In this document: in pieces, positions 1 to 51,100 of the stretch
How the letters are laid out: every line of letters starts with the position of its first letter
Position numbering within the stretch: position 1 is the stretch's first letter
Assembly: GCF_044704955.1 (NCBI RefSeq)
Contig: NC_091984.1
Location: 144,088,001-144,152,000 of the forward strand
Source: Pristiophorus japonicus
Lineage: Eukaryota
DNA length: 64,000 nucleotides
Direction of reading: 5' to 3'
Notes under the pieces: generated by a model
The model's input: the letters and a program-made list of their open reading frames with translations, nothing else
What the model was told of the DNA's origin: nothing
Database searches by the model: none
Program-made: the position numbers and the translations under genes

Positions 1-1197
1 TTCCAGTAGAGTGGACAAGGGAGAACCAGTTGATGTGGTGTATTTGGACTTTCAGAAGGCTTTCGACAAGGTCCCACACAAGAGATTAATGTGCAAAGTT
101 AAAGCACATGGGATTGGGGGTAGTGTGCTGGCATGGATTGAGAACTGATTGTCAGACAGGAAGCAAAGAATAGGTGTAAGTGTGTACTTTTCACAATGGC
201 AGGCAGTGACTAGTGGGGTACCGCAAGGTTCTGTGCTGGGGCCCCAGCTGTTTACACTGTACATTAATGATTTAGACCAGGGGATTAAATGTAGTATCTC
301 CAAATTTGCAGATGACACTAAGTTGGGTGGCAGTGTGAGCTGCGAGGAGGATGCTGTGAGGCTGCAGAGCGAGTTGGATAGGTTAGGTGAGTGGGCAAAT
401 GCATGGCAGATGAAGTATAATGTGGATAAATGTGAGGTTATCCACTTTGGTGGGAAAAACAGAGAGACAGACTATTATCTGAATGGTGACAGATTAGGAA
501 AAGGGGAGGTGCAACGAGACCTGGGTGTCATGGTACATCAGTCATTGAAGGTTGGCATGCAGGTACAGCAGGCGGTTAAGAAAGCAAATTACATGTTGGC
601 CTTCATAGCGAGGGGATTTGAGTACAGGGGCAGGGAGTATTGTGTACAGTTTTGGTCTCCTAACCTGAGGAAGGACATTCTTGCTATTGAGGGAGTGCAG
701 CGATGGTTCACCAGACTGATTCCCGGGATGGCGGGACTGACCTATCAAGAAAGACTGTATCAACCGGGCTTGTATTCACTGGAGTTCAGAAGAATGAGAG
801 GGGACCTCATAGAAACGTTTAAAATTCTGATGGGTTTAGACAGGTTAGATGCAGGAAGAATGTTCCCAATGTTGGGGAAGTCCAGAACCAGGGGTCACAG
901 TCTAAGGATAAGGGATAAGCCATTTAGGACCGAGATGAGGAGAAACTTCTTCACCCAGAGAGTGGTGAACCTGTGGAATTCTCTACCTCAGAAAGTTGTT
1001 GAGGCCAATTCACTAAATATATTCAAAAAGAAGTTTAATGAAGTCCTTACTACTAGGGGGATCACGGGGTATGGCGACAAAGCAGGAATGGGGTACTGAA
1101 GTTACATGTTCAGCCATGAACACATTGAATGGCGGTGCAGGCTTGAAGGGCCGAATGGCCTACTCCTGCACTTATTGTCTATGTTTTCTATGTTTTC
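1..1197 (+). mobile_element. CR1-clade LINE, 3' part of ORF2 (RT) plus 3' tail, inactivated; duplicate of 24003-25199
   Basis: GVPQGSVLGP and FADD RT motifs, (CTATGTTTT)n tail. Carries the same in-frame TGA and internal deletion as the 24-kb copy. Confidence 0.93.
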
Positions 1198-1247
1198 TAA
1201 TCCCCTTCCCACACACGGTGCAGAATCTCTATGATCACGGACTCTAT

Positions 1248-2735
1248 GGGGGATAAATTCGATCGGCCCTGCAAACATGCGCGAGGATCACGATGCGGGA
1301 TTAACCCACGCCCATAGCTCCCGATGCAGGCAGCAGGCCAAATTTGTGCTGCCTGCTAACCAACATGATTTTTGCGCGCACCCAGCACTAACTGTGCTGT
1401 TGAGTGGCTACAGGCCTCAGCGGCCGGGGCCCAAGGTTGTGTGAGGCTGGCACCAGTTAAAGCTGGCCTGCACCTCTTAATGGACAAGTAAAATGTGTCT
1501 GGAGCAGGTGCTGGAAGTGGCTGTGGACGACATTCTGACCTGGACCAAGACGTACTGATGACACAACAGGGGAGAGAGCCGGCTCCAAGATCCTCCAGCG
1601 CTGCACTGAAGGCCTTGGGGGAGGAGGTGCAGAGGGGGAGAGATGTTCTCTACCCACACGGGGCGAGGAGGCTCCACCAGACAAACGTTTCGAAGGCAGT
1701 GAGACCAGGACCCGAGGACTGGGATGTAGTGCCGCCAAATGTTCAATGACCTCACGAGAGTGGTCAAGGTCGGTGAATTCATCTTCAAATGCCGTGTCCC
1801 ACCAACTGCTCCACTAGTCTCACACATTGCTCAATGTACCACACCCCCATCACCCACTACCAACAATCTCTAGCAATCAGGACTCATACACAAGGACAGA
1901 AGGTATAGGAGCAGGAGTGGGCCATACGGCCCCTCGAGCTGGTCCACCATTCAATAAGATCATGGTGGATTTGATCTTGGCCTCAATTCCACTTCGCCGC
2001 CTGTTCCCCATAACCCGTGACTCTCCTGTAGTTCAAGAATCTGTCTATCTCAGCCTTGAATATAGTCAATGACCCAGCCCCCACAGCTCTCTGGGGCAGA
2101 GAATTCCAAATATTCACGACCCGGAGAGAAGAAATTTCTCCTCATCTCCATCTTAAATGGGGTCCGCTTATTCTGAGACTATGCCTCCTAGTTCCAGATT
2201 CCCTCACAAGGGGAAATATCCACACTCACAGCTTCACCTCACTCTCACACACTTAGATTCTGCTGCAAGCCTCACGCCCACATCTCACAGCTTGCACACA
2301 CGGCCAGCTATTCAACCGTGACAGGCGCATCACCCAAACACAGGGCACCACACTCACCGATACACTTCCCTCTCTTGCAGAGCAAGGTGGCCCAGAACCC
2401 GAGGCAGCAGGAGCTCAGTGGCGGGGGGCAGGCGCGCCCAGATGTCCTTATCCCCGTGGAGCAGACGGTGCTCGCCATCATTGGCGTGCCCATCGCTGAG
2501 CTCGTGGCCAGTGGCGGGGCAGAACTACAGAAGATGATGATATGGCCGTACCTAATCCTCCTTCTCACATCCCACATCCCCCACAGCGCACAATCCCTTC
2601 TGATTTACAAGCTGCAGATGAGGGAAAGCATGCCCCTCTTACATCGACCCCCCCACCACCACCCTTCCCGCACTGCAACCCTCCCCTTGTACCTTTCTCC
2701 TTTCACATACCCAGGAACTGCCACTTGGCCAGGCA
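1248..2735 (+). mobile_element. Truncated Harbinger/PIF transposon, left part (Myb/SANT-like ORF remnant), with a nested minus-strand CR1 3' fragment at about 1893-2220
   Basis: MTQQGREPAPRSSSAALKALGEEVQRGRDVLYP resembles the N-terminus of the Harbinger-associated Myb/SANT (NAIF1-like) domain. Same sequence as 25250-26737. Confidence 0.7.
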
Positions 2736-3785: not shown

Positions 3786-3942
3786 AATAACGTGCCTTAC
3801 CCTCTGACCCTCAGATGCTTTCCCTGACCCAGTCCCGAGAAGGAAGAGAGTAGAAATGCAGTGCTGACAATGACCTTTGTCCTCCCGGCTCACCCCCTGT
3901 TCTATTTAAAGTTGCGTCTCCCCGCGGACTGTCCCTGACACA

Positions 3943-4271
3943 CTACGCACATTCTGCTCTCCTGATGCCCTTGCTGAGGGGAGAGGAGAGACTCTCGTGG
4001 GTGAGGCTGCAGGAGAAGCTGGCGTTGGACTCCCAGTCGGAGCCAGAGAGGGTCAGCAGGCTGCTGACACTGTAGGTGTTGTCCGAAGCTCGCAGGTAGT
4101 CGCTGGTCTGGACCCCGGCCGAAATGGTCGACCCGTCCTTCTTCCACTCCACCTCCACCGCATCGGGGTAGAAGTGATCGGCGAGGCACACCAGGGTGGC
4201 AGTGCCCTTAGTCGTGACCTCCTCCGTGGAGGGGGGCAGTAGGGTCAGCGTGGGTGGTGTCTTCCCTCGGC
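3943..4271 (-). CDS. IGKC: Immunoglobulin kappa-type light chain constant exon (C1-set domain)
   Basis: Acceptor tttcag|GC, then RGKTPPTLTLLPPSTEEVTTKGTATLVCLADHFYPDAVEVEWKKDG...YSVSSLLTLSGSDWESNASFSCSLTHESLSSPLSKGIRRAECA*. Conserved Cys/Trp/Cys and penultimate interchain Cys; resembles shark NS4/kappa C. Confidence 0.96.
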
Positions 4272-4519
4272 CTGAAAGGGAGGAGAAAGATGCTTAATAG
4301 GTGTATATTAGTCTGTGTGTATGTGTGTGTGTGTGTGTCACTGTGACTGTTTCCGTGTGGGGATAATTCACAACTGAAAACGGAGAGCTGGGTTAATGAA
4401 CTCCTGGCTGGTGATTAACCATTCGAGGCGAGCATCACTAATTCTTAATCTTCTTTGCCTCACTTGATAAGTTTAATCTAAATATAAATGCGTTTGATCT
4501 TAAAGTGATTTAAAAAAGT

Positions 4520-12780: not shown

Positions 12781-12880
12781 GTAATCATACGTAAACTAAC
12801 ACCTTCGCATATTCAGCATTTATGTCTTAAAAAGATTCAGTATTTAAAGTGTTAATAACGGAGGATTGGGGTTTACTTAC

Positions 12881-12915
12881 TCAGTCTGAGCTTGGTTCCT
12901 TTACCGAACGTGAGC
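12881..12915 (-). CDS. IGKJ: Immunoglobulin light chain J segment (single J)
   Basis: G CTC ACG TTC GGT AAA GGA ACC AAG CTC AGA CTG A|gtaagt gives LTFGKGTKLRL(S). FGXG motif; the phase-1 donor matches the C acceptor. Confidence 0.96.
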
Positions 12916-12954
12916 CACAGTGACAGCTTCCAGTGCAGTGGCTGTACAATATCC
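12916..12954 (+). other. 23-bp-spacer recombination signal sequence of J
   Basis: CACAGTG (12916-12922), 23 nt, then ACAATATCC (12946-12954, 7/9 consensus). Confidence 0.93.
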
Positions 12955-14380: not shown

Positions 14381-14408
14381 GGTTTTTGTACAGCTGTGTA
14401 TCACAGTG
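14381..14408 (-). other. 12-bp-spacer recombination signal sequence of V
   Basis: Minus strand reads CACTGTG, ATACACAGCTGT (12 nt), ACAAAAACC. V12/J23 is the kappa-type configuration. Confidence 0.96.
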
Positions 14409-14707
14409 TAGAGGGTAGCTGTTATGTTGCTGACAGTAATAGTCTGCGACATCCTCGCTCTGCACGTTGCTGATGCTCAGGGTGAACATGTTGGACTTGT
14501 AACTGCCGGTGAAGCGATCGGAGGTTCCAGTGAAACGAGATGTTGCCGAATAGATCAGCAGAGTGGGTTTCTGCCCGGCTTTCTGCTGGTACCAAGCAAC
14601 ATAATTGCTAACGGATGCACTGGCGGTACAGGTGATGGTTGCAGTCTGTCCCTCACTCACTGACAGCACCGGGGGAGACTGGGTCATGATGATGTCCCCA
14701 CTGATAC
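14409..14707 (-). CDS. IGKV: Immunoglobulin kappa-type light chain V exon, not germline-joined
   Basis: Acceptor ctcag|GT, then (G)[99 protein letters not shown]. Cys23, WYQQ and DYYC are intact. Confidence 0.97.
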
Positions 14708-14894
14708 CTGAGGGGGAAATGGGGAAAGAAAGTGAAGTAAGCACTGTCACAGAAAGACGCTGTAAAATGAGAGATTGCTCGAGACACTGAGCTCTCCTCT
14801 CGTGTCAGCATTTGCCCTTCAATCACTGGTCAGTAGAGTTGGACAGAAATCGACAGCAGGGAGATATTAAACATGGAAGGAGAGAGATTGGTAC

Positions 14895-14943
14895 CTGCGA
14901 TGCAGAATGCCAGAGGCCAGATCAGCTGGATGGGTGAAATCAT
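14895..14943 (-). CDS. IGKV: Leader (signal peptide) exon of the kappa V gene
   Basis: ATG at 14943 gives MISPIQLIWPLAFCIA+G|gtacc; 49 nt, phase 1, matching the V exon acceptor. Confidence 0.93.
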
Positions 14944-15002: not shown

Positions 15003-15097
15003 TTTATAAACCTGCAGCCTGTGAGAGTCTCACTGCCCATCCCTCAGTATGTAAATGTCTTCACCCAGAGAAAGCCACGTCAGCACATTTCACTTCC
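15003..15097 (-). promoter_or_regulatory. V promoter: TATA box, variant octamer, CRE/UPRE-like site, EICE
   Basis: TTTATAAA 15003-15010; ATTTACAT 15049-15056; TGACGTGG 15075-15082; GGAAGTGAAA 15088-15097. Confidence 0.75.
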
Positions 15098-15694
15098 TCT
15101 TCTTCTCTCCCTCCCTCTTCACCTCCCTCTCCCTTCCTCTCTCTCTCCATCCCTCCCTCTCGCTCTCCATCCCTCCCTCTCTCTCTCCATCCCTCCCTCT
15201 TTCTCCCTCTCCCCCACAGACTCCCAGCTGCAGCACACTGAAATGCAGAGTAAACCTCCCTGTGCCCTACCCCACCAATGGATGTTAACCCTTGACCCCA
15301 GAGCATGCCTTCTCCTGGAGTAAGGCCCCATTCCCCACAGTGGCCATCCCTTGGCCTCTCTCAGTACACTGGCTGTTTATTGCCCAATTAAGGGGCGTTC
15401 TGTGCTGTGGGCCTATTCTCAGTGAGAACCGGTTTGGACAGAAAGTTAATTTCATGAAGGCCCAGCAGAGAGAGGACATCCTCACCCCATCAGTGTGAGC
15501 TGGAGCGACAGGACAGGGTCTGAGCCACTGCCCCATCCTGTCCGCTCAGAACATCTTCGAATCCCTTCCCCTCTCCTTCCCCTTCCATGGCCCCGCTCCA
15601 GGTCAGGTGTTTTTACTGGGATCAGGTCCGACGATCCCACATTTACAACAGGAAGGGTTCGCACTCCACGTCGACCATGGACTCCATGTCCCAC

Positions 15695-15862
15695 TGGTCC
15701 TCCAATAGGGCTCAGGAAACATGGCTCCTTCCTATTGGTCCCCCAACAGGGACCAGGAAACATGGATCCTTCCTATTGGTCCTCCAATAGGGAATAGGAA
15801 AGATGGCTCCTTTCTATTAGACATCCAATAGGGCACAGGAAACATGGCTCCTTCCTATTGGA
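15695..15862. repeat. 41-bp tandem repeat (about 4 copies) with an internal CCTATTGG-n4-CCAATAGG palindrome
   Basis: (C/T)AGGAAA(C/G)ATGG starts at 15713, 15754, 15795 and 15836. Confidence 0.85.
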
Positions 15863-15899
15863 TATATACTTGAAAAGGAACAATTTGCTGGGTTATGGG

Positions 15900-17530
15900 G
15901 GCGAGGAACTTAACACAATCACAATCACTAAGGAGGTGGTACTCAGTAAGATAATGGAACTAAAGGCGAATAAATCCCCTGGATCTGATGGCTTGCATCC
16001 CAGGGTCTTATGAGAACACGCGGCAGTCTCAGTGGATGCATTGGTTGTAATTTACCAAAATTCCCTGTATTCTTGGGAGGTCCCAGCAGATTGTAAAACT
16101 GCAAATGTAACGCCCCTATTTACAAAAGGAGGCAGACAAAAAGCAGGAATCGATAGACCAATTAACCTAACATCTGTGGTTGGGAAAATGTCGGAGTCCA
16201 TTATTAAAGAAGCAGTAGCAGGACATTTGGATAAGCATAATTCAGTCAGGCAGAGTAAGCATGGAATTATGAAGGGGAAGTCATGTTTGATAAATTTGCA
16301 GAATTCTTTAAGGATGCAATGAGCAGGGTGGATAAAGGGGAACCAGTGGATGTGGTGTATTTGGACCTCCAGAAGGCATTTGACAAAATGCCACGTAAGA
16401 GGTTACTGCACAAGATAAAAATTCACAGGGTTGGGGGTAATATGTTAGCAAGGATAGACGATTGGCTAACTAGCAGAAAACAGAGAGTCTGCAAAAATGG
16501 TTCATTTTCGGGTTGGGAATCAGTAACTAGTGGGGTGCCGCAGGGATCAGTGCGGGGACCCCAACTATTTACAATATATATTAACGACTTGGATGATGGA
16601 ACCGAATATAATGTAGCCACGTTTTCTGACGATACAAAGATGTGAGGAAAAGCAATATGTGAGGAGGACACAAAAAACCTGCAAAAGGACGTAGGCAGGC
16701 TAAGTGAGTGGGCAAAAATTTAGCCGATGGTGTATAATGTTGGAAAGTGTGAGATCATGCACTTTGGCAGAAAAAAACAATCAAAGAGCAAGTTATTATT
16801 TAAATGGAGAAAGATTGCAAAGTGCTGTGGTGCAGCGGGTACTTGTGCATGAAACACAAAATGTTAGTATGCAGATACAGTAAGTGATCAGGAAGGCCAA
16901 TGGAATATTGGCCTTTATTGCAAAGGGGACGGAGTATAAAAGCAGGGAAGTCTTGCTACAGCTATACAGGGTATTGGTGTGGACACACTAATTTTGGATT
17001 CCATATTTAAGAAAGGATATACTTGCTTTGGAGGCAGGTCAGAGAAGGTTCATTAGGTTGATTCAGGAGATGAGGCGGTTGATTTATGAGGAAAGCTTGA
17101 GTAGGTTGTGCATCTGCTCATTCGAATTCGGAAGAATGAGAGGTGATCTTATTGAAACGTATCAGATTTTGAGGGGGCTTGACAAAGTGGATGCAGAGAG
17201 GATGTTTCCACTGAGGGGTAGAATTGAACTAGAGGGCACAGTCTTAGAATAAGTGGCCTCCCATTTAAAACAGATGATGAGGAATTTCTTCTCTCTGAGG
17301 GTTGTAAATCTGTGGAATTGGCTGCCTCAGAGATCTGTGGAAGCTGGGTCGTTGAATAAATTTAAGACAGAGATAGACAGTTTCTTAACCGACATGGGAA
17401 TAAGGGGTTAAGGGGAGCGGGGAGGGATGTGGAGCTGAATCCATGATCGTATCGGCCATGATCGTATTAAATAGCGGAGCAGGCTCGAGGGGCCATGTGG
17501 CCTACTCCTGCTCCTATTTCTTATGTTCTT
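15900..17530 (+). mobile_element. 5'-truncated, degenerate CR1 LINE
   Basis: RT motif fragments with stops and frameshifts; TTCTTATGTTCTT tail. Confidence 0.9.
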
Positions 17531-17619
17531 TAACTGGTGAGGAATGGGACTAATTGGGTAATTCTTTGAAAGAGCCGGCAAAGGCACGATGGGCCGAATG
17601 GCCTCCTTCTGTGCTTAAG

Positions 17620-17860
17620 ATTCTAGGCTGTGAGCGCGGTTCACAGTTTTCTCCCGTGTCATTAACAAACGTACAGCTGTGACAACCTCCCTCTTTCACT
17701 TCCTCTGTGGGTGAAGTTTCATTCTTCCGATCTGACAGTCTCTTCAGTTATTTTTTGCACGGGGGATTTCTGCTGTGGTCTGAGTCTCTAATAATAACCG
17801 TCCAATCAGGCAGAATAACAGCAGCTCGGACCGGCCCTGACAGCGGATCCAGGCTCAGTG
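17620..17860. promoter_or_regulatory. Candidate B-cell enhancer upstream of V
   Basis: Non-TE island containing E-box CAGCTG 17674, EICE 17694-17703, kB-like GGGGATTTCT 17762, RUNX TGTGGTC 17774, MEF2-like CTAATAATAA 17788 and CCAAT 17802. Confidence 0.55.
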
Positions 17861-19150
17861 CTGACCCTGCAACATCCTCCTCACCAACATCTGGGGACTT
17901 GTGCCAAAAGTGGGAGAGCTGCCCCACAGACTAGTCAAGCACCAGCCTGACATAGCCCTACTCACAGAATCAGACCTTTCAGCCAATGTCCCAGACTCCT
18001 CCATCACCCAAGGTGGCAGCTCAGTGGTATACAGTCGGGAGGGAGTGGCCCTGGGAATCCTCAACATTGACTCCGGACCCCATGAAGTCTCATGGCATCA
18101 GGTCAAACACGGGCAATGAAATCTCCTGCTGATTACCACCTCCCGCCCTCCCTCAGCTGATGAATCAGTACTCCTCCATGTTGAACACCACTTGGAAGAA
18201 ACACTGAGAGTAGCAAGGGCACAGAATGTACTCTGGGTGGGGGACTTCACTGTCCATCACCAAGAGTGTCTCGGTAGCACCACTACTGACTGAGCTGGCC
18301 GAGAGGGGCGATGCTGACATTGCAATCCCAGGTACCGGAGGACTGGAGGACTGCAAACATGGTACCTTTGTTTAAAAATGGAGCAAGGGATAGATCGAGT
18401 CACTACAGGTCAGTCAGCCTAACCTCGGGGGCGGGATTGGAGGAATCTTCATTTAACAAGACACGGATTAATCAAGGACAGTCAGCATGGATTTGTTCAG
18501 GGAAGGTCGTGTCTGAATAACTTGATTGAATTTTTTGTGGAGAGTCGATGAGAGCAGTGCGTATGATGCAGTGTATATAGATTTTAAAAAGGCTTTTGAG
18601 AAGGTCCCACATGGCAGACTGGTCACAAAAGTAATAGCCCATGGGATCCAGGTCAAAGTGACAAGTTGGATTCAAAATTGGTTCAGAGGCAGTTAGCAAA
18701 GGGTAATGGTTGATGGGTGTATTTCTTACTGGAAGCCTGTATCCAGTGTGGTTCCGCAGGGCTCAGTACTGGGTCCCTTGCTTTTTATTAAATGGCGGAG
18801 CAGGCTCGAGGGGCCAAATGACCTACTCCTGCTCCTATTTCTTATGTTCTTATAATAAATGCCGGCCTTGCCTGCAACGCCCACATTCCATGAATTAATA
18901 AAAATCCCATGGGCTGACAGTTCAGGAGAATAGGACACACTTTCCTCTTTCACCCTCAACCATCATCCCTGAAACAGATTATCAGCTCATTATCACATTG
19001 CTGTTTGTGGGAGCTTGCAGTGCACAAATGGGTTGCCACGTTTCCTACATTACAACAGTGACTACACTTCAAAAAGTACTTCATTGGCTGTAAAGTGCTT
19101 TGTCATCCTGAGGATGTGAAAGGCGCTATATAAATGCAAGTCTGTCTCTT
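17860..19150 (+). mobile_element. Stack of LINE fragments (APE N-terminus 17860-18300, CR1 RT 18310-18850) and a SINE (about 18860-19150)
   Basis: QPDIALLTE endonuclease motif, CR1 RT fragments, SINE tail. Confidence 0.7.
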
Positions 19151-19272: not shown

Positions 19273-19697
19273 CATTTAATCCCCTCCCACACACCATGTA
19301 CACCCCACCCTATGATGGACTCTACCACCCATTTAATCCCCTCCCACACACCATGTACACCCCACCCTATCATGGATTCTACCACCCATTTAATCCCCTC
19401 CCATACACCATGTACACCCCACCCTATCATGGACTCTACCACCCATTTAATCTCCTCCCACACACACCATGTACTCCCCACCCTATCATGGACCCTACCA
19501 CCCATTTAATCCCCTCCCACACACCATGTACTCCCCACCCTATCATGGAGCCTACCACCCATTTAATCCCCTCCCACACACCATGTACTCCCCACCCTAT
19601 CATGGACCCTACCACCCATTTAATCTCCTCCCACACACACCATGTACTCCCCACCCTATCATGGACCCTACCACCCATTTAATCTCCTCCCACACAT
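19273..19697. repeat. 57-59-bp minisatellite (about 7 copies; resumes at 20443-20528 and 25200-25240)
   Basis: CATTTAATCCCCTCCCACACACCATGTACACCCCACCCTATCATGG units. Confidence 0.93.
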
Positions 19698-19715
19698 ATA
19701 TGTACACTCTCTCTC

Positions 19716-20528: not shown

Positions 20529-23500
20529 ATCAGCAGCAGTCGGGAGCAGCGTCGGAGGTGCGTGGAGAGGCCTATAAAAGGCACAGCAGGGAGTCCGGGG
20601 CCCAGCCTCGGGAGCAGTGTCGAGGAGGTCCATTGGTGAGGCCTATAAAAGGCAGAGCAGGGAGTCCGGGGCCCAGCCTCGGGAGCAGCGTCGAGGAGGT
20701 CCATTAGTGAGGCCTATAAAAGGCACAGCAGGGAGTCCGGGGCCCAGCCTCGGGAGCAGTGTCGAGGAGGTCCGTTGGTGAGGCCTATAAAAGGCACAGC
20801 AGGGAGTCCGGGGCCCAGCGTCGGGAGCAGTGTCGAGGAGGTCCGTTGGTGAGGCCTATAAAAGGCACAGCAGGGAGTCTGGGGCCCAGCCTCGGGAGCA
20901 GTGTCGAGGAGGTCCGTTGGTGAGGCCTATAAAAGGCACAGCAGGGAGTCCGGGGCCCAGCCTCGGGAGCAGTGTCGAGGAGGTCCGTTGGTGAGGCCTA
21001 TAAAAGGCACAGCAGGGAGTCTGGGGCCCAGCCTCGGGAGCAGTGTCGAGGAGGTCCGTTGGTGAGGCAAAAAAGAAGTAGAAAGAAACAGAAGGGTGAC
21101 GTCACAGCCAAGGGGGTAAGTGATTGGCTGGTGATTGGCGAGTACTTTTTATTTTTTCTCTTCTATAACAGTGAGTAACTTTAGCATTGTTGTTGCCTAT
21201 CTCAGGGTTAAGTCATGGCAGGACAGTTCGGTCACGTGTTATGCTCCTCCTGTACCATGTGGGAACTCAGGGACGACTCCAGTGTCCCTGACGACTACAT
21301 GTGCGGGAAGTGTATCCGCCTCCAGCTCCTGACGGACCGCGTTGCGGAGTTGGAGCAGAGGGTGGATTCACTCTGGAGCATCCACGATGCTGAGAATGAC
21401 GTGAGTAGCACATGTAGCGAGTTGGTTGTACCGCAGGTAAAGGGTCCACAGCCAGCTTGGGAATGGAAGACCAGCAGGAAGAGCAGAGCAAGGAAGGTAG
21501 TGCAGGGGTCTCCTGTGGTCATCCCCCTGCAAAACAGATACACTGCTTTGAGTACTGTTGAGGGGGATGACTCATCAGGGGAGGGCAGCAGCAGCCAAGT
21601 TCATGGCACCGTGGCTGGCTCTGTTGCACAGGAGGGCAGGAAAAAGAGTGGGAGAGCGATAGTGATAGGGGATTCAATTGTCAGGGGAATAGATAGGTGT
21701 TTCTGCGGCTGCAACCAAGACTCCAGGATGGTACGTTGCCTCCCTGGTGCAAGGGTCAAGGATGTCTCGGAGCGGGTGCAGGACATTTTAAAAAGGGAGG
21801 AAGAACAGCCAGTTGTCGTGGTGCACATTGGTACCAACGACATCGGTAAAAAAAATGGATTAGGACCTACGAAACGAATTTAAGGAGCTACGAGCTAAAT
21901 TAAAAAGTAGGACCTCAAAAGTAGTAATCTTGGGATTGCTACCAGTGCCACGTGCTAGTCAGAGTAGGAATCGCAGGATAGCGCAGATGAATACGTGGCT
22001 TGAGCAGTGGTGCAGCAGGGAGGGATTCAAATTCCTGGGGCATTGGAACCGGTTCTGGGGCAGGTGGGACCAGTACAAACCGGACGGTCTGCATCTGGGC
22101 AGGACCGGAACCAATGTCCTAGGGGGAGTGTTTGCTCGTGCTGTTGGGAAGGAGTTAAACTAATGTAGCAGGGGGATGGGAACCAATGCAGGGATACAGA
22201 GGGAAACAAAAAGGAGACAAAAGCAAAAGACAGAAAGGAGATGAGGAAAATTGGAGGGCAGAGAAACTCAAGGCAAAGAACAAAAAGGGTCACTGTACAG
22301 CAAAATTCTAAAAGGACAAAGGGTGTTAAAAAAACAAGCCTGAAGGATTTGTGTCTTAATGCAAGGAGTATCCATAATAAGGTGGATGAATTAACTGTGC
22401 AAATAGATGTTAACAAATATGATGTGATTGGGATTACAGTGACGTGGCTCCAGGATGATCAGGGCTGGGAACTCAACATCCAGGGGTATTCAACATTCAG
22501 GAAGGATAGAATAAAAAGAAAAGGAGGTGGGGTAGCATTGCTGGTTAAAGAGGAAATTAATGCAATCGTTAGGAAGGACATTAGCTTGGATGATGTGGAA
22601 TCTATATGGGTAGAGCTGCAGAACACCAAAGGGCAAAAAACGTTAGTGGGAGTTGTGTACAGACCTCCAAACAGTATAGTGATGTTGGGGAGGGCATCAA
22701 ACAGGAAATTAGAGGTGCATGCAATAAAGGTGCAGCAGTTATAATGGGTGACTTTAATATGCACAGAGATTGGGCGAACCAAACTGGAAGCAATACGGTG
22801 GAGGAGGATTTCCTGACGTGCATAAGGGATGGTTTTCGAGACCAATATGTCAAGGAACCAACGAGGGGGGAGGCCATCTTAGACTGGGTGTTGTGTAATG
22901 AGAGAGGAATAATTAGCAATCTCGTTGTGCGAGGCCCCTTGGGGAAGAGTGACCATAATATGGTGGAATTCTGCATTAGGATGGAGAATGAAACAGTTAA
23001 TTCAGAGACCATGGTCCAGAACTTAAAGAAGGGTAACTTTGAAGGTATGAGGCGTGATTAGGCCAGGATAGATTGGCGAATGATACTTAAGGGGTTGACT
23101 GTGGATGGGCAATGGCAGACATTTAGAGACCGCATTGATGAACTACAACAATTGTACATTCCTGTCTGGCGTAAAAATAAAAAAGGGAAGGTGGCTCAAT
23201 CGTGGCTATCAAGGGAAATCAGGGATAATATTAAAGCCAAGGAAGTGGCATACAAATTGGCCAGAAATAGCAGTGAACCCGGGGACTGGGAGAAATTTAG
23301 AACTCAGCAGAGGAGGACAAAGGGTTTGATTAGGGCAGGGAAAATGGAGTACGAGAAGAAGCTTGCAGGGAACATTAAGACGGATTGCAAAAGTTTTTAT
23401 AGATATGTAAAGAGAAAAAGGTTAGTAAAGACAAACGTAGGTCACCTGCAGTCAGAATCAGGGGAAGTCATAACGGGGAACAAAGAAATGGCGGACCAAT

Positions 23501-25199
23501 TGAACAAGTACTTTGGTTCACTATTCACTAAGGAGGATACAAACAACCTTCCGGATATAAAAGGGGTCAGAGGGTCTAGTAAGGAGGAGGAACTGAGGGA
23601 AATCCTTATTAGGCGGCAAATTGTGTTGGGGAAATTGATGGGATTGAAGGCCGATAAATTCCCAGGACCTGATGGACTACATCCCAGAGTACTTAAGGAG
23701 GTGGCCTTGGAAATAGCGGATGCATTGACAGTCATGTTCCAACATTCCATTGACTCTGGATCAGTTCCTATCGAGTGGAGGGTAGCCAATGTAACCCCAC
23801 TTTTTAAAAAAGGAGGGAGAGAGAAAACAGGGAATTATAGACCGGTCAGCCTGATATCGGTAGTGGGTAAAATGATGGAATCAATTCTTAAGGATGTCAT
23901 AGCAGTGCATTTGGAAAGAGGTGACGTGATAGGTCCAAGTCAGCATGGATTTGTGAAAGGGAAATCATGCTTGACAAATCTTCTGGAATTTTTTGAGGAT
24001 GTTTCCAGTAGAGTGGACAAGGGAGAACCAGTTGATGTGGTGTATTTGGACTTTCAGAAGGCTTTCGACAAGGTCCCACACAAGAGATTAATGTGCAAAG
24101 TTAAAGCACATGGGATTGGGGGTAGTGTGCTGGCATGGATTGAGAACTGATTGTCAGACAGGAAGCAAAGAATAGGTGTAAGTGTGTACTTTTCACAATG
24201 GCAGGCAGTGACTAGTGGGGTACCGCAAGGTTCTGTGCTGGGGCCCCAGCTGTTTACACTGTACATTAATGATTTAGACCAGGGGATTAAATGTAGTATC
24301 TCCAAATTTGCAGATGACACTAAGTTGGGTGGCAGTGTGAGCTGCGAGGAGGATGCTGTGAGGCTGCAGAGCGAGTTGGATAGGTTAGGTGAGTGGGCAA
24401 ATGCATGGCAGATGAAGTATAATGTGGATAAATGTGAGGTTATCCACTTTGGTGGGAAAAACAGAGAGACAGACTATTATCTGAATGGTGACAGATTAGG
24501 AAAAGGGGAGGTGCAACGAGACCTGGGTGTCATGGTACATCAGTCATTGAAGGTTGGCATGCAGGTACAGCAGGCGGTTAAGAAAGCAAATTACATGTTG
24601 GCCTTCATAGCGAGGGGATTTGAGTACAGGGGCAGGGAGTATTGTGTACAGTTTTGGTCTCCTAACCTGAGGAAGGACATTCTTGCTATTGAGGGAGTGC
24701 AGCGATGGTTCACCAGACTGATTCCCGGGATGGCGGGACTGACCTATCAAGAAAGACTGTATCAACCGGGCTTGTATTCACTGGAGTTCAGAAGAATGAG
24801 AGGGGACCTCATAGAAACGTTTAAAATTCTGATGGGTTTAGACAGGTTAGATGCAGGAAGAATGTTCCCAATGTTGGGGAAGTCCAGAACCAGGGGTCAC
24901 AGTCTAAGGATAAGGGATAAGCCATTTAGGACCGAGATGAGGAGAAACTTCTTCACCCAGAGAGTGGTGAACCTGTGGAATTCTCTACCTCAGAAAGTTG
25001 TTGAGGCCAATTCACTAAATATATTCAAAAAGAAGTTTAATGAAGTCCTTACTACTAGGGGGATCACGGGGTATGGCGACAAAGCAGGAATGGGGTACTG
25101 AAGTTACATGTTCAGCCATGAACACATTGAATGGCGGTGCAGGCTTGAAGGGCCGAATGGCCTACTCCTGCACTTATTGTCTATGTTTTCTATGTTTTC
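20529..25199 (+). mobile_element. Full-length CR1-clade LINE (5' monomer array, ORF1 zinc finger plus SGNH esterase, ORF2 APE-RT), inactivated
   Basis: ORF1 21215-22163 (CSSC..CGKC, IGDS, VVVHIGTND, DGLH). ORF2 from about 22241 to 25101 with a frameshift, stops at 23059 and 24148, and a deletion. Apparent TSD TAATC at 20524-20528 and 25200-25204. Confidence 0.93.
20540..21068 (+). repeat. 71-bp x7 TATA-containing monomers in the LINE 5' UTR
   Basis: CCTATAAAAG at 20571, 20642, 20713, 20784, 20855, 20926 and 20997. Confidence 0.95.
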
Positions 25200-26737
25200 T
25201 AATCCCCTTCCCACACACGGTGCAGAATCTCTATGATCACGGACTCTATGGGGGATAAATTCGATCGGCCCTGCAAACATGCGCGAGGATCACGATGCGG
25301 GATTAACCCACGCCCATAGCTCCCGATGCAGGCAGCAGGCCAAATTTGTGCTGCCTGCTAACCAACATGATTTTTGCGCGCACCCAGCACTAACTGTGCT
25401 GTTGAGTGGCTACAGGCCTCAGCGGCCGGGGCCCAAGGTTGTGTGAGGCTGGCACCAGTTAAAGCTGGCCTGCACCTCTTAATGGACAAGTAAAATGTGT
25501 CTGGAGCAGGTGCTGGAAGTGGCTGTGGACGACATTCTGACCTGGACCAAGACGTACTGATGACACAACAGGGGAGAGAGCCGGCTCCAAGATCCTCCAG
25601 CGCTGCACTGAAGGCCTTGGGGGAGGAGGTGCAGAGGGGGAGAGATGTTCTCTACCCACACGGGGCGAGGAGGCTCCACCAGACAAACGTTTCGAAGGCA
25701 GTGAGACCAGGACCCGAGGACTGGGATGTAGTGCCGCCAAATGTTCAATGACCTCACGAGAGTGGTCAAGGTCGGTGAATTCATCTTCAAATGCCGTGTC
25801 CCACCAACTGCTCCACTAGTCTCACACATTGCTCAATGTACCACACCCCCATCACCCACTACCAACAATCTCTAGCAATCAGGACTCATACACAAGGACA
25901 GAAGGTATAGGAGCAGGAGTGGGCCATACGGCCCCTCGAGCTGGTCCACCATTCAATAAGATCATGGTGGATTTGATCTTGGCCTCAATTCCACTTCGCC
26001 GCCTGTTCCCCATAACCCGTGACTCTCCTGTAGTTCAAGAATCTGTCTATCTCAGCCTTGAATATAGTCAATGACCCAGCCCCCACAGCTCTCTGGGGCA
26101 GAGAATTCCAAATATTCACGACCCGGAGAGAAGAAATTTCTCCTCATCTCCATCTTAAATGGGGTCCGCTTATTCTGAGACTATGCCTCCTAGTTCCAGA
26201 TTCCCTCACAAGGGGAAATATCCACACTCACAGCTTCACCTCACTCTCACACACTTAGATTCTGCTGCAAGCCTCACGCCCACATCTCACAGCTTGCACA
26301 CACGGCCAGCTATTCAACCGTGACAGGCGCATCACCCAAACACAGGGCACCACACTCACCGATACACTTCCCTCTCTTGCAGAGCAAGGTGGCCCAGAAC
26401 CCGAGGCAGCAGGAGCTCAGTGGCGGGGGGCAGGCGCGCCCAGATGTCCTTATCCCCGTGGAGCAGACGGTGCTCGCCATCATTGGCGTGCCCATCGCTG
26501 AGCTCGTGGCCAGTGGCGGGGCAGAACCACAGAAGATGATGATATGGCCGTACCTAATCCTCCTTCTCACATCCCACATCCCCCACAGCGCACAATCCCT
26601 TCTGATTTACAAGCTGCAGATGAGGGAAAGCATGCCCCTCTTACATCGACCCCCCCACCACCACCCTTCCCGCACTGCAACCCTCCCCTTGTACCTTTCT
26701 CCTTTCACATACCCAGGAACTGCCACTTGGCCAGGCA
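24003..26737 (+). repeat. Segmental duplication copy B
   Basis: Matches 1-2735. Here the Harbinger sequence continues uninterrupted (...GGCAGTGTTGG). Confidence 0.95.
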
Positions 26738-30950: not shown

Positions 30951-31060
30951 GTTTTCTCAGCACAGAATCTCTCACACCCAGAATCTCAGAACAGACTCTT
31001 CTTCAAAAGGGTTCCTGTTTAAGGGTTCACGGGATTCGGGGGCGGGGAGAGGAGGCAGTA

Positions 31061-31691
31061 GGACATTGGCTGAAAGGTCTGATTCTGTGAGTAGGACTAT
31101 GTCAGGCTGGTGCTTGACTAGTCTGTGGGGCAGCTCTCCCACTTTTGACACAAGTCCCCAGATGTTGGTGAGGAGGACGTTGCAGGGTCAGCACTGAGCC
31201 TGGGTCCGCTGTCCTAGCCGGTCCGAGCTGCTGTTATTCTGCCTGATTGGACAGTTATTATTAGAGACTCAGACCACAGCAGAAATCCCCCGTGCAAAAA
31301 ATAACTGAAGAGATTGTCAGATCGGAAGAATGAAACTTCACCCACAGAGGAAGTGAAAGAGGGAGGTTGTCACAGCTGTACATTTGTTAATGACACGGGA
31401 GAAAACTGTGAACCGGGCTCACAGCCTAGAATCTTGCAGCACAGAAGGAGGCCATTCGGCCCATCGTGCCTGTGCTGGCTCTTTGAAAGAATTACCCAAT
31501 TAGTCCTACTCCCCCTCATTTTAAGAACATAAAAAATAGGAGCAGGAGTAGGCCACATGGCCCCTCGAGCCTGCTCTGCTATTTTATACGATCATGGCCC
31601 ATCCGATCATGGATTCAGCTCCACATCCCTGCTTGCAGTCCATAACCCCTTATTCCCTTGTCGGTTAAGAAACTGCCTATCTCTGTCTTAA
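31061..31691 (-). repeat. Inverted paralogue of 17362-17992 (CR1 3' end, enhancer-like island, APE fragment)
   Basis: Colinear reverse-complement match that includes the element junctions. EICE 31349-31358, E-box 31373, RUNX, MEF2-like and kB-like sites are all retained. Confidence 0.92.
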
Positions 31692-34600
31692 GTATATTCA
31701 ATGACCCAGCCTCCACAGATTTACAACCCTCTGAGAGAAGAAATTCCTCCTCATCTCAGTGTCCTCTACCGTAAAAACTGATACAAAATATTTGTTCAGA
31801 GTTTCTGCCATCTCCATGTTCCCCATCACTAATTCCCTGGTTTTGTCCTCTCAGGGACCAACTTTATTTTAGCCACTCTTTTCCTTTTTATACACCGATA
31901 GAAACTCTTGCTATCTCTTTTTATATTTTGTGCTCGTTTACTTTCATCGTCTATCTTTCCATTCTTAATCATTTTTTTCGTCATTCTTTGCTGGCTTTTA
32001 AAAGTTTCTCAATTTCTGTCCTCCCACTAGTTTTGGCCACTTTGTATGCCCTTGTTTTTAATTGGATACCATCCTTTATTTCTTTAGTTAGCCACGGATG
32101 GCTATCTTTTCTTTTACACCATTTCCTCCTCACTGGAATATATTTTTCTTGAGAGTTGTGAAATATCTCCTTATATGTATGCCATTGTTCATCAGCCATC
32201 CTACACTTTAATCTATTTTCCCAGTCCACTTTAGCCAAATCTGACCTCATACCTTTGTAGTCTCCATTATTTAAGCTTAGTACGCTGGTTAGAGATCCAT
32301 CTTTCTCACCCTCCATCTGAATTTGAAATTGAACCATGTTATCATCACTCAGTCCAAGGGGATCCTTTACTGGGAGCTTGTTTATTAATACTGTCTCATT
32401 ATACAGGACCAGATCTAAGATAGCCTGCCCCCTGGTTGGTTCCATTACATACTACTCAAGGAACCCGTCCCTTATGCACTCTATGAACTCTTCCTCAAGA
32501 CTACCCTGACCAATTTGATTTATCCAATCAATGTGGAGGTTAAAATCACCCATAATTATTGCTGTTCCCTTTTTACAATCCTCCACTATGTCTTGCTTTA
32601 TACTCCGATCAACAGAGTTGCTAATGTTAGGGGGCCGATAGATTATGCCCACCAGTGACTTTTTCCCTTTATTATTCCTTATCTCCACCCAAACTGTTTC
32701 AACATCCTGATCATTTGAGCCAATATCATTTCTCACTATTGCAGTGATTCCATCCTTTATCAACAGAGCAACCCCACCTCCTTTTCCTTTCTGTCTGTCC
32801 TTCCGGATTGTCAAGGACTCCTGAGTATTTAGTTCCCAGTCCTGGTCACCTTGCAACTATGTCTATGTAATGGCTATCAGATCATATTCATTTGTATCTA
32901 TTTGTGCCGTCAACTCATCTATTTTGTTATTTAGACAAAGAGCCTTTAAATTTGTTTTTTTACCCTTTTTATCTGCTTGTTTCCTCTCTCCTTCAAACTC
33001 ACTTTCTTTATTTTTGCTTGCTAATTCCAGCTTTAGTCCCCTCCCTACTGAATCTATTCTCCGGTTCCCATCCCCCTGCCAAGCTAGTTTAATCCCTCCC
33101 CAACATCACTAACAAATGCTCCCCTCGAGGATATTGTCCCAGCTCTGTTGAGGAGCAACCTGGCCGGTTTGTACAGGTCCCACCTCCCCCAGAAACGGTC
33201 TCAATGCCTCAGGAAACTAAAGTGTCCCACCTGCACCATCTCTCCCGCCACGCATTCATCTGCTCTATCCTCCTGTTTCTGTATTCACCAGCTCGTGGCA
33301 CCGGGAGTAATCCGGAGATTAGAGAATAATTAGAGATTAAAGATTCTGAGAGATAAATTCTTCCTCATCTCGCTCTCACCTCAGCCCCCTAGTTCTAGTC
33401 TCCCCTATCAGTGGAAACATCCTCTCTGCATCCACCTTGTAAAGCCCCCTCATAATCTTTCATTTTTTGATAAGATCACCTCTCTTTCTTCTGAATTCCA
33501 ATGAGTAGATGCCCAACCTACTCAACCTTTCCTGAAAAGAAAATCCCCCTCATCTCTGGAATCAATCTAGTGAACCTTCTCTGAACTACCTCCAAAGCAA
33601 GTATATCCTTTCTTAAATATGGAAACCAAAATTGCATGCAGTATTCCAGGTGTGGCCTCACCAATACCCCGTAAAACTGCAGCAAGACTTCCGTACTTTT
33701 ATATTCCATTCCCATTACAACAATGGCTAAGATTCATGACCACTTGCTGTACCTGCATACTATCCTTTTGTGTTTCATGCACAAGTACCCCCAGGTCCCG
33801 CTGTACTACAGCACTTTGTAATTTTTCTCCATTCGAATAATAACCTGCTCATTGATTTTTTTCTGCCAATGTGCATAACCTCACAGTTTCAAACATGATA
33901 ATCCATCTGCCAAATTTTTGCCCACTCACTTAGCCTGTCTATATCTTTTTGCAGGTTTTTTGTGTCTTCCTCACACATTGCTTTTACTCCCATCTTTGTA
34001 TCATCAGCAAACATGGCTATGTTACACTCGGTCCCTTCATACAAATCATTAATATAGATTGCAAATAGTTGGGGTCCTAACACTGATCCCTGCGGCACCC
34101 TAGTAGTTACGGATTGCCAGCCCGGAGAATGAACCATTTATCATGACTCTCTGTTTTCTGTTAGTTTGCCAATCCTCTATCCATTCTAATGTATTACCCC
34201 AAACCCCATGAGCTTTTATCTTGTGCAGTAACCTTTTATGTGTCACCTTGTCAATTGCCTGCTGGAAGTCCAAATACACCACATAAACTGATTCCTCTTT
34301 ATCCACCCTGTTCGTTACATCCTCAAAGAACTCCAGCAAATTTGTCAAACATGACTTCCCCTTTGTTATGTATTGTCCAGGTACATTAAATTTATAAGTG
34401 CAATGGTGCGCCATAGAGGACGCTGTGGTGGGAGACTGGAAAGTACCTGCAAGACAGAGTCTAAAAGTCTGCCCACCACACCTGAGAGGCACTCTGGAGT
34501 CAGACAATGAAGGACTAAGGTCACAGCAGTTACTACAACACCAGACTGTGTGGAGTCAGTGATTTGAGTGCGACATACATCACATTGGCGACAAGGACAC

Positions 34601-41914: not shown

Positions 41915-42562
41915 ACTGTGCAGTCCTGAGGGAGTGCTGCACTGTCAGAGGGGCAGTACTGAGGGAGTGTTGCACTGTCAGAGGGGCAATACTGAGGGAG
42001 TGCTGCACTGTCAGAGGGGCAGTCCTGAGGGAGTGCTGCACTGTCAGAGGGGCAGTACTGAGGGAGTGCTGCACTGTCAGAGGGGCAGTACTGAGGGAGT
42101 GCTGCACTGTCGGAGGGGCAGTACTGAGGGAGTGCCGCACTGTCGGAGGGGCAGTACTGAGGGAGTGCCGTACTGTCGGAGGGGCAATACTGAGGGAGTG
42201 CCACACTGTCAGAGGGACAGTACTGAGGGAGTGCTGCACTGTCAGAGGGGCAGTACTGAGGGAGTGCCACACTGTCAGAGGGGCAACTGAGGGAGTGCCG
42301 CACTGTCAGAGGGGCAGTACTGAGGGAGTGCTGCACTGTCACAGGGCAGTACTGAGGGAGTGTTGCACTGTCGGAGAAGCAATATTGAGGGAGTGTTGCA
42401 CTGTCAGAGGGGCAATACTGAGGGAGTGCTGCACTGTCAGAGGGGCAGTACTGAGGGAGTGCCGCACTGTCAGAGGGGCAATATTGAGGGAGTGTTGCAC
42501 TGTCGGAGGGGCAATACTGAGGGAGTGCCACACTGTCGGAGGGGCAGTACGAGGGAGTGCCT
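41915..42562. repeat. 33-bp minisatellite (about 19 copies) amplified from a SINE body
   Basis: ACTGTCAGAGGGGCAGTACTGAGGGAGTGCTGC units follow a SINE head at about 41830-41910. Confidence 0.93.
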
Positions 42563-42944
42563 GTCGGCGGTTTACTCGGGCTTACCGAAAACGCACCTCC
42601 TACTACAAGTTCTGGACGATAGGGATTATATGGACAGATCAGACTTGAACACACGTTTTTCAGGCTCAACCGTATTGTGTTTAATAAGATTACCAACACC
42701 ACTCATAAACAGTGCAAAACAGTACAACCCTGGCTTGTCCAATAAGCCCTGCTGTGCTAAGTTACCACGGTTTAATAAAAGAACCCTCTCATGAAATAAA
42801 CTAACACAGGACTCCCCCAGCACTCAACCCCTTGGGTTTGGTTGGGACTTACAATCACCCCCTCACACAGCTAAGTGGTCTTGTGGATGTGTAGGCGCAG
42901 GCAATATGCTCACCCTGATTGCCCGTTGTCTTGCTTGCAGCTTC

Positions 42945-48120: not shown

Positions 48121-48155
48121 GTGCTTTCACTCTCTACATATGTCCGGTCAAAAGC

Positions 48156-51100
48156 CTGTTCCCAGCTCTCACACTCTATCTATGACCATCCACAGTCTGT
48201 TCCCAGCTCTCACTGTCTATCTATGACCATCCACACTCTGTTCCCAGCTCTCACACTCTATCTATGACCATCCACACTCTGTTCCCAGCTCTCACACTCT
48301 ATCTATGACCATCCACAGTCTGTTCCCAGCTCTCACTGTCTATCTATGACCATCCACAGTCTGTTCCCAGCTCTCACACTCTATCTATGACCATCCACAG
48401 TCTGTTCCCAGCTCTCACTGTCTATCTATGACCATCCACACTCTGTTCCCAGCTCTCACACTCTATCTATGACCATCCACAGTCTGTTCCCAGCTCTCAC
48501 TGTCTATCTATGACCATCCACACTCTGTTCCCAGCTCTCACACTCTATCTATGACCATCCACAATCTGTTCCCAGCTCTCACTGTCTATCTATGACCATC
48601 CACACTCTGTTCCCAGCTCTCACACTCTATCTATGACCATCCACACTCTGTTCCCAGCTCTCACTGTCTATCTATGACCATCCACACTCTGTTCCCAGCT
48701 CTCACTGTCTATCTATGACCATCCACACTCTGTTCCCAGCTCTCACTGTCTATCTATGACCATCCACAGTCTGTTCCCAGCTCTCACTGTCTATCTATGA
48801 CCATCCACACTCTGTTCCCAGCTCTCACTGTCTATCTATGACCATCCACACTCTGTTCCCAGCTCTCACACTCTATCTATGACCATCCACAGTCTGTTCC
48901 CAGCTCTCACACTCTATTTATGACCATCCACACTCTGTTCCCAGCTCTCACACTCTATCTATGGCCATCCACAATCTGTTCCCAGCTCTCACTGTCTATC
49001 TATGACCATCCACACTCTGTTCCCAGCTCTCACTGTCTATCTATGACCATCCACACTCTGTTCCCAGCTCTCACACTCTATCTATGACCATCCACACTCT
49101 GTTCCCAGCTCTCACACTCTATCTATGGCCATCCACACTCTGTTCGCAGCTCTCACACTCTATCTATGACCATCCACACTCTGTTCCCAGCTCTCACACT
49201 CTATCTATGACCATCCACAGTCTGTTCCCAGCTCTCACTGTCTATCTATGACCATCCACAGTCTGTTCCCAGCTCTCACTGTCTATCTATGACCATCCAC
49301 AGTCTGTTCCCAGCTCTCACACTCTATCTATGACCATCCACGCTCTGTTCCCAGCTCTCACTGTCTATCTATGACCATCCACAGTCTGTTCCCAGCTCTC
49401 ACTGTCTATCTATGACCATCCACAGTCTGTTCCCAGCTCTCACTGTCTATCTATGACCATCCACACTCTGTTCCCAGCTCTCACTGTCTATCTATGACCA
49501 TCCACACTCTGTTCCCAGCTCTCACACTCTATCTATGACCATCCACACTCTGTTCCCAGCTCTCACACTCTATCTATGACCATCCACAGTCTGTTCCCAG
49601 CTCTCGCTGTCTATCTATGACCATCCACAGTCTGTTCCCAGCTCTCACACTCTATCTATGGCCATCCACAGTCTGTTCCCAGCTCTCACTGTCTATCTAT
49701 GGCCATCCACACTCTGTTCCCAGCTCTCACACTCTATCTATGGCCATCCACAATCTGTTCCCAGCTCTCACTGTCTATCTATGACCATCCACACTCTGTT
49801 CCCAGCTCTCACTGTCTATCTATGACCATCCACACTCTGTTCCCAGCTCTCACTGTCTATCTATGACCATCCACACTCTGTTCCCAGCTCTCACTGTCTA
49901 TCTATGGCCATCCACACTCTGTTCCCAGCTCTCACACTCTATCTATGACCATCCACACTCTGTTCCCAGCTCTCACACTCTATCTATGACCATCCACACT
50001 CTGTTCCCAGCTCTCACACTCTATCTATGACCATCCACAGTCTGTTCCCAGCTCTCACTGTCTATCTATGACCATCCACAGTCTGTTCCCAGCTCTCACT
50101 GTCTATCTATGACCATCCACAGTCTGTTCCCAGCTCTCACACTCTATCTATGACCATCCACGCTCTGTTCCCAGCTCTCACTGTCTATCTATGACCATCC
50201 ACAGTCTGTTCCCAGCTCTCACTGTCTATCTATGACCATCCACAGTCTGTTCCCAGCTCTCACTGTCTATCTCTGGCCATCCACACTCTGTTCCCAGCTC
50301 TCACACTCTATCTATGACCATCCACACTCTGTTCCCAGCTCTCACTGTCTATCTCTGTCCATCCACAGTCTGTTCCCAGCTCTCACTGTCTATCTATGAC
50401 CATCCACAGTCTGTTCCCAGCTCTCACTGTCTATCTATGACCATCCACACTCTGTTCCCAGCTCTCACTGTCTATCTATGACCATCCACACTCTGTTCCC
50501 AGCTCTCACACTCTATCTATGACCATCCACACTCTGTTCCCAGCTCTCACACTCTATCTATGACCATCCACAGTCTGTTCCCAGCTCTCACTGTCTATCT
50601 ATGACCATCCACAGTCTGTTCCCAGCTCTCACACTCTATCTATGATCATCCACAGTCTGTTCCCAGCTCTCACACTCTATCTATGACCATCCACAGTCTG
50701 TTCCCAGCTCTCACACTCTATCTATGACCATCCACACTCTGTTCCCAGCTCTCACTGTCTATCTATGACCATCCACATTCTGTTTCCAGCTCTCACACTC
50801 TATCTATGACCATCCACAGTCTGTTCCCAGCTCTCACTGTCTATCTCTGGCCATCCACACTCTGTTCCCAGCTCTCACACTCTATCTATGACCATCCACA
50901 CTCTGTTCCCAGCTCTCACTGTCTATCTCTGTCCATCCACAGTCTGTTCCCAGCTCTCACTGTCTATCTATGACCATCCACAGTCTGTTCCCAGCTCTCA
51001 CTGTCTATCTATGACCATCCACACTCTGTTCCCAGCTCTCACTGTCTATCTATGACCATCCACACTCTGTTCCCAGCTCTCACACTCTATCTATGACCAT

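Follow-up and report, generated by a model that had tools for sequence, protein, structure and literature searches.

Sharks carry their immunoglobulin (Ig) genes as many small V-J-C clusters. Enhancers of Ig genes are known in teleosts, and in mouse E88 and E34 are single elements that organise the 3-Mb Igk translocon. The lambda enhancer of chicken and human, as presented in the available part of PMC3972084, holds E-box, NF-kB, MEF2 and PU.1-IRF4 sites (a DIVAC element), in the order E-box, kB (reverse), MEF2, EICE and E-box in Fig S4 of that source. For kappa, a figure legend of PMC13639285, the part of that paper available, names E88 and E34 as enhancers of the mouse V-kappa region, and the accessible sections of PMC6146092 report that PU.1 binding and enhancer marks near individual V-kappa genes predict rearrangement. 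For sharks, the accessible text of PMC2435157 models the firing of few clusters per cell as infrequent formation of a promoter-enhancer complex, the enhancer being invoked as a model only, and that of PMC2193156 mentions no more than an NS4 octamer and unnamed regulatory sequences. The word "enhancer" occurs zero times in PMC5192425 and PMC6795676, the available part of PMC9936319 holds nothing bearing on shark Ig enhancers, and the literature searched, with subscription journals mostly outside it, yielded no identification of one.

The DNA analysed here, referred to as the window, is a stretch of 64,000 nt from Pristiophorus japonicus (G000:C8:144088001-144152000, contig NC_091984.1). It contains one complete cluster of NS4 type on the minus strand, which we take to be kappa from its 12/23 RSS arrangement and the split (unjoined) state of its V and J. 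Isotype names follow the available part of PMC5192425. The cluster and its surroundings comprise the following features:

3940..4272, minus strand: kappa C exon, a C1-set match without stops
12880..12954, minus strand: J segment LTFGKGTKLRLS (J at 12915-12880) with a 23-bp-spacer RSS
14381..14943, minus strand: kappa leader (ATG at 14943), V exon to 14409 and 12-bp-spacer RSS; open frame, canonical RSS
15049..15099, minus strand: V promoter, with an EICE 12-mer (15088-15099) and the octamer variant ATTTACAT (15049-15056)
15901..17544, plus strand: CR1 LINE insertion separating the island described below from the V promoter; 99% dispersed repeats, absent from most paralogues
31049..31756, minus strand: inverted paralogous block with a copy of the island, its EICE at 31347-31358

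A tandem duplication of 24,002 bp (99.96%; window 1-2735 and 24003-26737), spanning G000:C8:144068169-144105694, has copied the whole island-V-J-C unit, which recurs nearly identical at C8:144.94, 146.47 and 147.07 Mb. The window also holds a tandem array of 4.1 kb (48123-52232), its period being ~41 bp, and further minisatellites at 19273-19705, 20534-21068 and 41920-42570.

The element under study lies 2.7 kb 5′ of the leader of this intact cluster. An earlier note on this DNA had described a non-TE island of about 240 bp between LINEs; its non-repeat nature and LINE flanks were borne out, and its extent had to be reduced to approximately 17625-17838 (214 bp), with a constrained core at 17674-17806. 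Contig depth is 10^3-10^5 on both flanks versus 5.6 inside, and no covariance model of Rfam 15 matched the island at E<=1. The idea that the right-hand LINE has the island for its 5′ end was rejected, since unrelated DNA lies upstream of two off-locus copies of that LINE (only two were seen). The island, its flanks and its candidate sites, with their state in 78 distinct copies and in a second species, organism B, are:

17545..17624, plus strand: CR1 3′ tail, left flank; abuts 15857-15900 in 20 of 40 fetched loci
17625..17838, strand not assigned: non-repeat island, candidate upstream enhancer by its repeat bounds, its copies and their position, and its constraint
17674..17679, strand not assigned: E-box CAGCTG; intact in 76 of 78 copies, kept in organism B
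17694..17705, minus strand (the sense strand of the cluster): EICE GAGGAAGTGAAA, candidate for PU.1/Spi-B + IRF4/8; kept in organism B
17716..17729, minus strand: candidate second Ets core and IRF half-site, CGGAAG-AAT-GAAAC, from sequence; two variable columns
17748..17757, plus strand: degenerate MEF2-like site TTATTTTTTG; differs from the consensus at one position, with 3 changes over its 10 sites
17762..17771, plus strand: kB-like site GGGGATTTCT; one mismatch to GGGRNNYYCC, intact in 68 of 78 copies
17774..17780, plus strand: RUNX site TGTGGTC; exact in 76 of 78 copies, TGCGGTC in 2
17788..17797, plus strand: MEF2 site CTAATAATAA; fits YTAW4TAR in 78 of 78 copies, kept in organism B
17802..17806, plus strand: CCAAT; present in 77 of 78 copies, TCAAT in organism B
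17839..18300, plus strand: endonuclease LINE fragment, right flank, frame ILLTNIWGLVPK...; off-locus copies align from 17839-17862

All six motifs that the earlier note had placed within about 135 bp were found where it put them, and span 133 bp (17674-17806). The candidate Ets/IRF site at 17716-17729 and the MEF2-like site at 17748-17757 come in addition to those it named. They are also, as it reported, unchanged in the inverted paralogue (six of six, at 31246-31378). We do not share the weight that it gave to this identity: the two copies share a block corresponding to 17272-18001 at 90% identity, the LINE flank 17862-17990 differs at merely 3 sites, and identity to the paralogue, being equalled by that of the flanking LINE, is weak evidence of constraint and was rejected as proof of it. 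The nearest V in the same sense as the inverted block lies 65 kb off and is broken. The promoter of the window's V carries the same EICE 12-mer as the island, 32 bp from the octamer variant, and its consensus is broken in 5 of 28 clusters. In several intact clusters with a perfect island EICE, the promoter EICE (window 15088-15099 and paralogues) has lost its IRF half (GTAA or GCAA), which suggests redundancy between both EICEs.

How often such a motif set arises by chance was estimated in several ways. We take CAGCTG to be of E2A type, from the consensus and from PMC3972084, the available part of which supplied the motif set for the chance tests (E-box, NF-kB, MEF2, PU.1-IRF4). None of 20,000 dinucleotide shuffles contained EICE with MEF2, and the product of the single-motif rates (EICE, E-box, MEF2, kB-like) was 3e-6. 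Among 97 EICE-consensus sites in 664 kb (the window and 60 stretches, nearly all from the kappa locus), a MEF2 site within 150 bp was present in island copies alone, and no further EICE+MEF2 pair came from another 226 kb, made up of introns, 3′ flanks and control loci. In 210 kb of a lambda-like array there were three EICE+MEF2 pairs, and all five loose motifs occurred together once, in a CR1 copy (L185:6574). Because this CR1 copy passed the loose filter, the empirical background is about 1 per Mb (one pass in ~1.1 Mb scanned, or ~0.06 per 64-kb window) and not 3 per million windows. Genome-wide, the perfect lambda-type grammar (kB, 45-75 bp, EICE) had 7 matches versus 8 for the control, with no kappa exon similarity.

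The lambda-like array is a second light-chain array at G000:C8:177.8-179.5 Mb, 35 Mb from the kappa array, with germline-joined VJ-C clusters and canonical octamers. It has two C types, which we presume to be lambda-like and perhaps sigma-cart-like. No homologue of the island was found there in 21 stretches of 10 kb and 11 short loci, covering the surroundings of five clusters. The EICEs with nearby motifs of this array were rejected as candidates, two being in CR1, one unshared and one in a dispersed repeat; an EICE 1.4 kb 3′ of C in the island-less kappa cluster described below was likewise rejected, as a private variant within a CR1 tail, and the kappa 3′ flanks sampled revealed no downstream EICE common to the clusters. 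One lambda-like cluster carries in its VJ-C intron an EICE (GGAACCGAAA) that lies 27 bp from a consensus MEF2 site (L201:8544-8580), a pair absent from the other lambda-like clusters fetched. A dispersed repeat family (332 candidates genome-wide; L187:5230-5290, G000:C8:179345.7 kb) contains CCAAT, a perfect EICE and CACGTG; four of its copies lie in the lambda-like array, one of them 5 kb 3′ of a C exon, and the family could serve as a seed of B-cell or interferon-responsive sites.

The kappa array extends over 5.3 Mb (G000:C8:143.49-148.82 Mb), mostly as head-to-head cluster pairs; exact pattern matches in it number 69 for C, 47 for the V leader and 29 for J. Many left arms of these pairs have lost V and J, and their homology stops within the J-C intron, at a LINE site (window 5861). 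Two kappa genes, at G000:C8:146963734 and 148179812 (L059, L063), are germline-joined VJ genes out of frame. Elsewhere, at G000:C8:159.555 Mb (L106:2613-2646), promoter, leader and V have been deleted, with the junction 2 bp past the nonamer of the V RSS; at a distance of 36 kb there is a lone V in inverted orientation.

The island was sought genome-wide and its co-location with kappa clusters assessed, as the earlier note had proposed. A 20-mer around the EICE gave 87 exact matches, of which 67 fall on C8:143.5-148.8 Mb and the other 20 on five small contigs, with none for the control. A 23-mer over the kB and RUNX sites (<=2 mismatches) gave 111, with none for control patterns, and the 100 of these that were listed were all in the kappa array, on small contigs or in a kappa cluster at 159.5 Mb. 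A DNA search with the island returned 113 candidates, patterns for kappa C, leader and J had 91, 62 and 41 matches in these same places, and a blast comparison of the island with 291 kb of off-locus DNA found no match. The earlier note had allowed that the island might belong to a high-copy TE unlinked to Ig loci; the matches listed were confined to the kappa array and small contigs, and among them there was no scatter of copies off the locus of the kind expected from a dispersed TE. Two small contigs with one island copy each (C1097 and C3483) had no match to a kappa exon pattern.

A copy of the island lies 2.6-10.0 kb upstream of 40 of the 48 V leaders on C8 (within 10.5 kb), compared with 16% of random points, and a copy up to 10.5 kb downstream of C was seen for one of 70 C exons; these position counts are for C8 only (14 V leaders and 21 C matches on small contigs were left out) and are not independent, because the array grew by segmental duplication. 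Orientation is the usual one in 36 of the 40 V-upstream copies and inverted in four. A role as 3′ enhancer of the neighbouring cluster was rejected, the island being 10.5 kb 3′ of a C exon only by way of the 24-kb tandem duplicate. Eight V genes have no near copy, and seven of them are broken or J-less: five have no J within 9 kb, one of them being further disrupted by a stop and an inserted LINE; in one the J is altered and C contains a stop; and one is an out-of-frame joined VJ. The eighth, in a complete-looking cluster with V at C8:146769455, has no listed island copy within 136 kb upstream. Conversely, 35 of the 78 distinct copies have no V or none nearby, many of these orphans consisting of C and island with no V or J; three of the 23 remaining C8 copies were absent from the fetched set. 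The reading that the earlier note proposed, a candidate per-cluster enhancer 5′ of V, is supported, its position stands, and "per cluster" is approximate.

Constraint was measured as parsimony changes per site on the 78 distinct copies, with CpG sites excluded and 41 motif sites. There were 0.44 changes per site in the motifs, 0.58 in the core and 0.89 in the TE flanks, with permutation p values of 0.007-0.04 for the core and 0.03-0.09 for the motifs (0.01-0.09 without the bases of the search patterns), all of these counts being non-independent since the copies stem from few segmental duplications. Branches were classed by their neighbouring cluster as intact (24), defective (12), orphan (35) or unclassified (7), V and J being confirmed intact in 18 plus two fetched clusters of the intact class, for which the state of C comes from a single survey of C exons. 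The ratio of motif to TE changes was 0.23 on intact, 0.62 on orphan and 0.79 on defective branches. Intact branches had 3 motif versus 60 TE changes (p 0.002); one of the three retains the MEF2 consensus and the other two are adjacent within one kB site. The difference between intact branches and defective plus orphan ones had a p of 0.054-0.07, and the whole core did not differ between intact and defective branches (p 0.52). A 1-bp loss at the 3′ end of five V genes was initially read as a mark of pseudogenes and dropped, the RSS being intact, so that defect calls rest on J, LINE-split V and C.

At the level of single sites, the EICE is exact in 64 of the 78 copies, has a spacer change in four and GGAA>AGAA in ten. 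The Ets core of these ten was broken by two independent events, all beside defective clusters: nine copies form one lineage in which the first Gly of FGXG is missing from J, or V is LINE-split or deleted, and the tenth lies next to a cluster whose C has lost 1 bp. The altered site may be weakened rather than dead, because AGAA is present in mouse lambda shadow enhancers. Both copies with an altered E-box are V-less orphans, and the kB-like site is the least conserved motif. In 28 copies chosen by V leader, variability of the core was not below that of the adjacent LINE (ratio 0.82-0.95, p 0.2-0.5), though below that of unique DNA near V (0.62, p 0.009); an earlier set of 53 copies showed no significant difference between motif and non-motif sites (p 0.11-0.15). 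Divergence from the window is 2-6% in the TE flanks and 5-11% in the J-C intron. Since the flanks are the closer of the two, the block may have undergone conversion or have a shallower history, and the constraint gradient could have been shaped by gene conversion between inverted arms. These comparisons point to evolutionary constraint of moderate strength on the putative binding sites.

Organism B looks closely related. One contig of run X5 covers 17597-17832 with 12 differences in 236 positions and a single gap. It retains the EICE, E-box, RUNX and MEF2 sites, its kB-like site has A>C at a degenerate position, and CCAAT is lost and probably lies outside the essential core. In the same run the C exon has 14 differences in 229 and the J-C intron 17 in 157 (island versus intron p 0.047), values from single contigs of depth ~6 in an organism found via the island, and the comparison tests a short time span only because the intron is no more distant from the window than are its paralogues. 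Runs X6-X8, whose kind is not on record, have contigs over the C exon and its 3′ UTR and none over the island, which we count neither for nor against it.

The island is thus a locus-specific, selectively constrained, kappa-linked motif cluster 5′ of most V genes, and we regard it as probable that it acts as the B-cell enhancer of each kappa V-J-C minilocus. How the island came to its present place bears on the other readings. The 1.6-kb LINE of the window is an insertion, since 15857-15900 abuts 17545 in 20 of 40 V-upstream loci, and the spacers of other lineages are different inserts, 67-100% dispersed repeat in seven of the eight tested. We infer that the island originally lay ~1.0 kb from the ATG and was later separated from it by TE insertions. 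A distance of only ~1 kb would allow an origin as a distal part of the V promoter, acting at short range and stranded by TE insertions, so that it has little effect now or only where the copies are closest; the EICE 12-mer and orientation common to island and promoter, and the single orientation kept in 36 of 40 copies, would fit. However, no copy is nearer to a V leader than 2.6 kb, the motifs are constrained on intact-cluster branches at 2.6-10 kb, and a single inversion event (break at 17618) has turned the island, whole, in four clusters whose V genes are intact. We consider this account unlikely.

It is still less probable that the island is a neutral passenger whose motifs, arisen by chance or as relics, were copied along with the clusters and kept alike through conversion between inverted arms. 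The likeness of paralogues, 94-100% with flanks included, the lack of a core-versus-LINE difference in the V-selected set, the one chance pass of the motif filter in ~1.1 Mb and the 35 orphans among 78 copies, with most motifs kept, are what it would lead one to expect; but beside intact clusters the motif sites change four times less than the flanks (p 0.002), Ets-core loss is limited to defective clusters, and the divergence of the island in organism B equals that of the C exon, not the picture of a passenger. The island might also be functional without activating V, either as promoter of an upstream non-coding transcript or as a silencer or boundary between head-to-head clusters. Its CCAAT is situated towards the distal end, with 60 bp between it and the beginning of the LINE; copies are often found facing one another between divergent clusters, at a distance of 10-19 kb; and RUNX and kB sites are able to repress as well as activate. 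Against such roles, CCAAT is missing in organism B, Rfam gave no match, and EICE, MEF2 and E-box together form the activating set of lambda enhancers; we hold this reading to be the most improbable one.

If the island is an enhancer of its own minilocus, PU.1/Spi-B and IRF4/8 would bind the EICE, with E2A, RUNX, MEF2 and NF-kB alongside. The resulting complex would make contact with the V promoter and its EICE 12-mer and octamer variant, open the 2-kb V-J interval to RAG and drive transcription of the joined gene, and it might target hypermutation, as this factor set does in the lambda enhancer. A bolder scenario, which we put forward as tentative and rather doubtful, is that the island descends from an ancestral light-chain enhancer of jawed vertebrates with a kB-EICE-E-box plus MEF2 grammar, placed 5′ of V at kappa in each minilocus; some 100 copies would then compete for limiting B-cell factors, deciding which cluster rearranges or hypermutates, and the V-less orphans in head-to-head pairs would be shadow enhancers. 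Enhancer function would give a first testable handle on the activation of the many small antibody loci of sharks. Its 130-bp core, of which mutant, inverted, orphan and missing alleles occur naturally over ~100 clusters, would make the promoter-enhancer model testable, and the same alleles would do so for the origin of hypermutation targeting. The 5′ position would show that the downstream placement of tetrapods is not required.

Among described elements, mouse E88 and E34 resemble the island in being enhancers at the V side of a kappa locus, and differ from it as single elements for a whole translocon, the island occurring approximately once per V-J-C minilocus. The V-kappa windows of PMC6146092 differ as well, since its available part describes no fixed-sequence multi-motif module 2.6-10 kb upstream. 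The mammalian Ig-kappa 3′ enhancer, Ed and the intronic enhancer share with the island the kappa isotype and the presence of EICE, E-boxes and kB (Fig S5 in the accessible part of PMC3972084), where human iEk has GGGGGATTTCC and the island GGGGGATTTCT. Unlike the island, each is present once per locus, either within the J-C intron or 3′ of C, and no MEF2 site is marked in them in that figure.

The earlier note had taken EICE with E-box or MEF2 sites as the hallmark of the kappa 3′ and lambda enhancers; the likeness is closest in grammar to the lambda enhancer, and the kappa 3′ enhancer is less close. Read on the EICE strand, the island presents MEF2, RUNX, kB (reverse), MEF2-like, EICE and E-box. 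It differs from the amniote Ig-lambda enhancer in lying 5′ of V and not 3′ of C, in its kappa isotype, in the added RUNX site and in its ~100 copies. The spacing from E-box to EICE is 14 bp, versus ~45 in the lambda enhancer. In the latter a consensus MEF2 site adjoins kB towards the EICE, whereas the perfect MEF2 site of the island lies 16 bp beyond kB (available part of PMC3972084); the island's MEF2-like TTATTTTTTG is on the lambda enhancer's MEF2 side, 4 bp from the kB-like site towards the EICE. Common to the island and the enhancers of human, mouse and chicken, in a by-eye comparison with Fig S4 of the same available part, are four motif types within ~150 bp (the island kB with one mismatch) and the order kB (reverse), EICE, E-box on the EICE strand. 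Counted from that figure, the end of kB is separated from the Ets core by 65 bp in human and mouse and 67 in chicken, compared with 58 in the island, and GGAAGTGAAA of the island is identical to the mouse lambda enhancer sequence E2-4. Departing from it in position, isotype and MEF2 placement, the island is lambda-enhancer-like by its predicted factor set.
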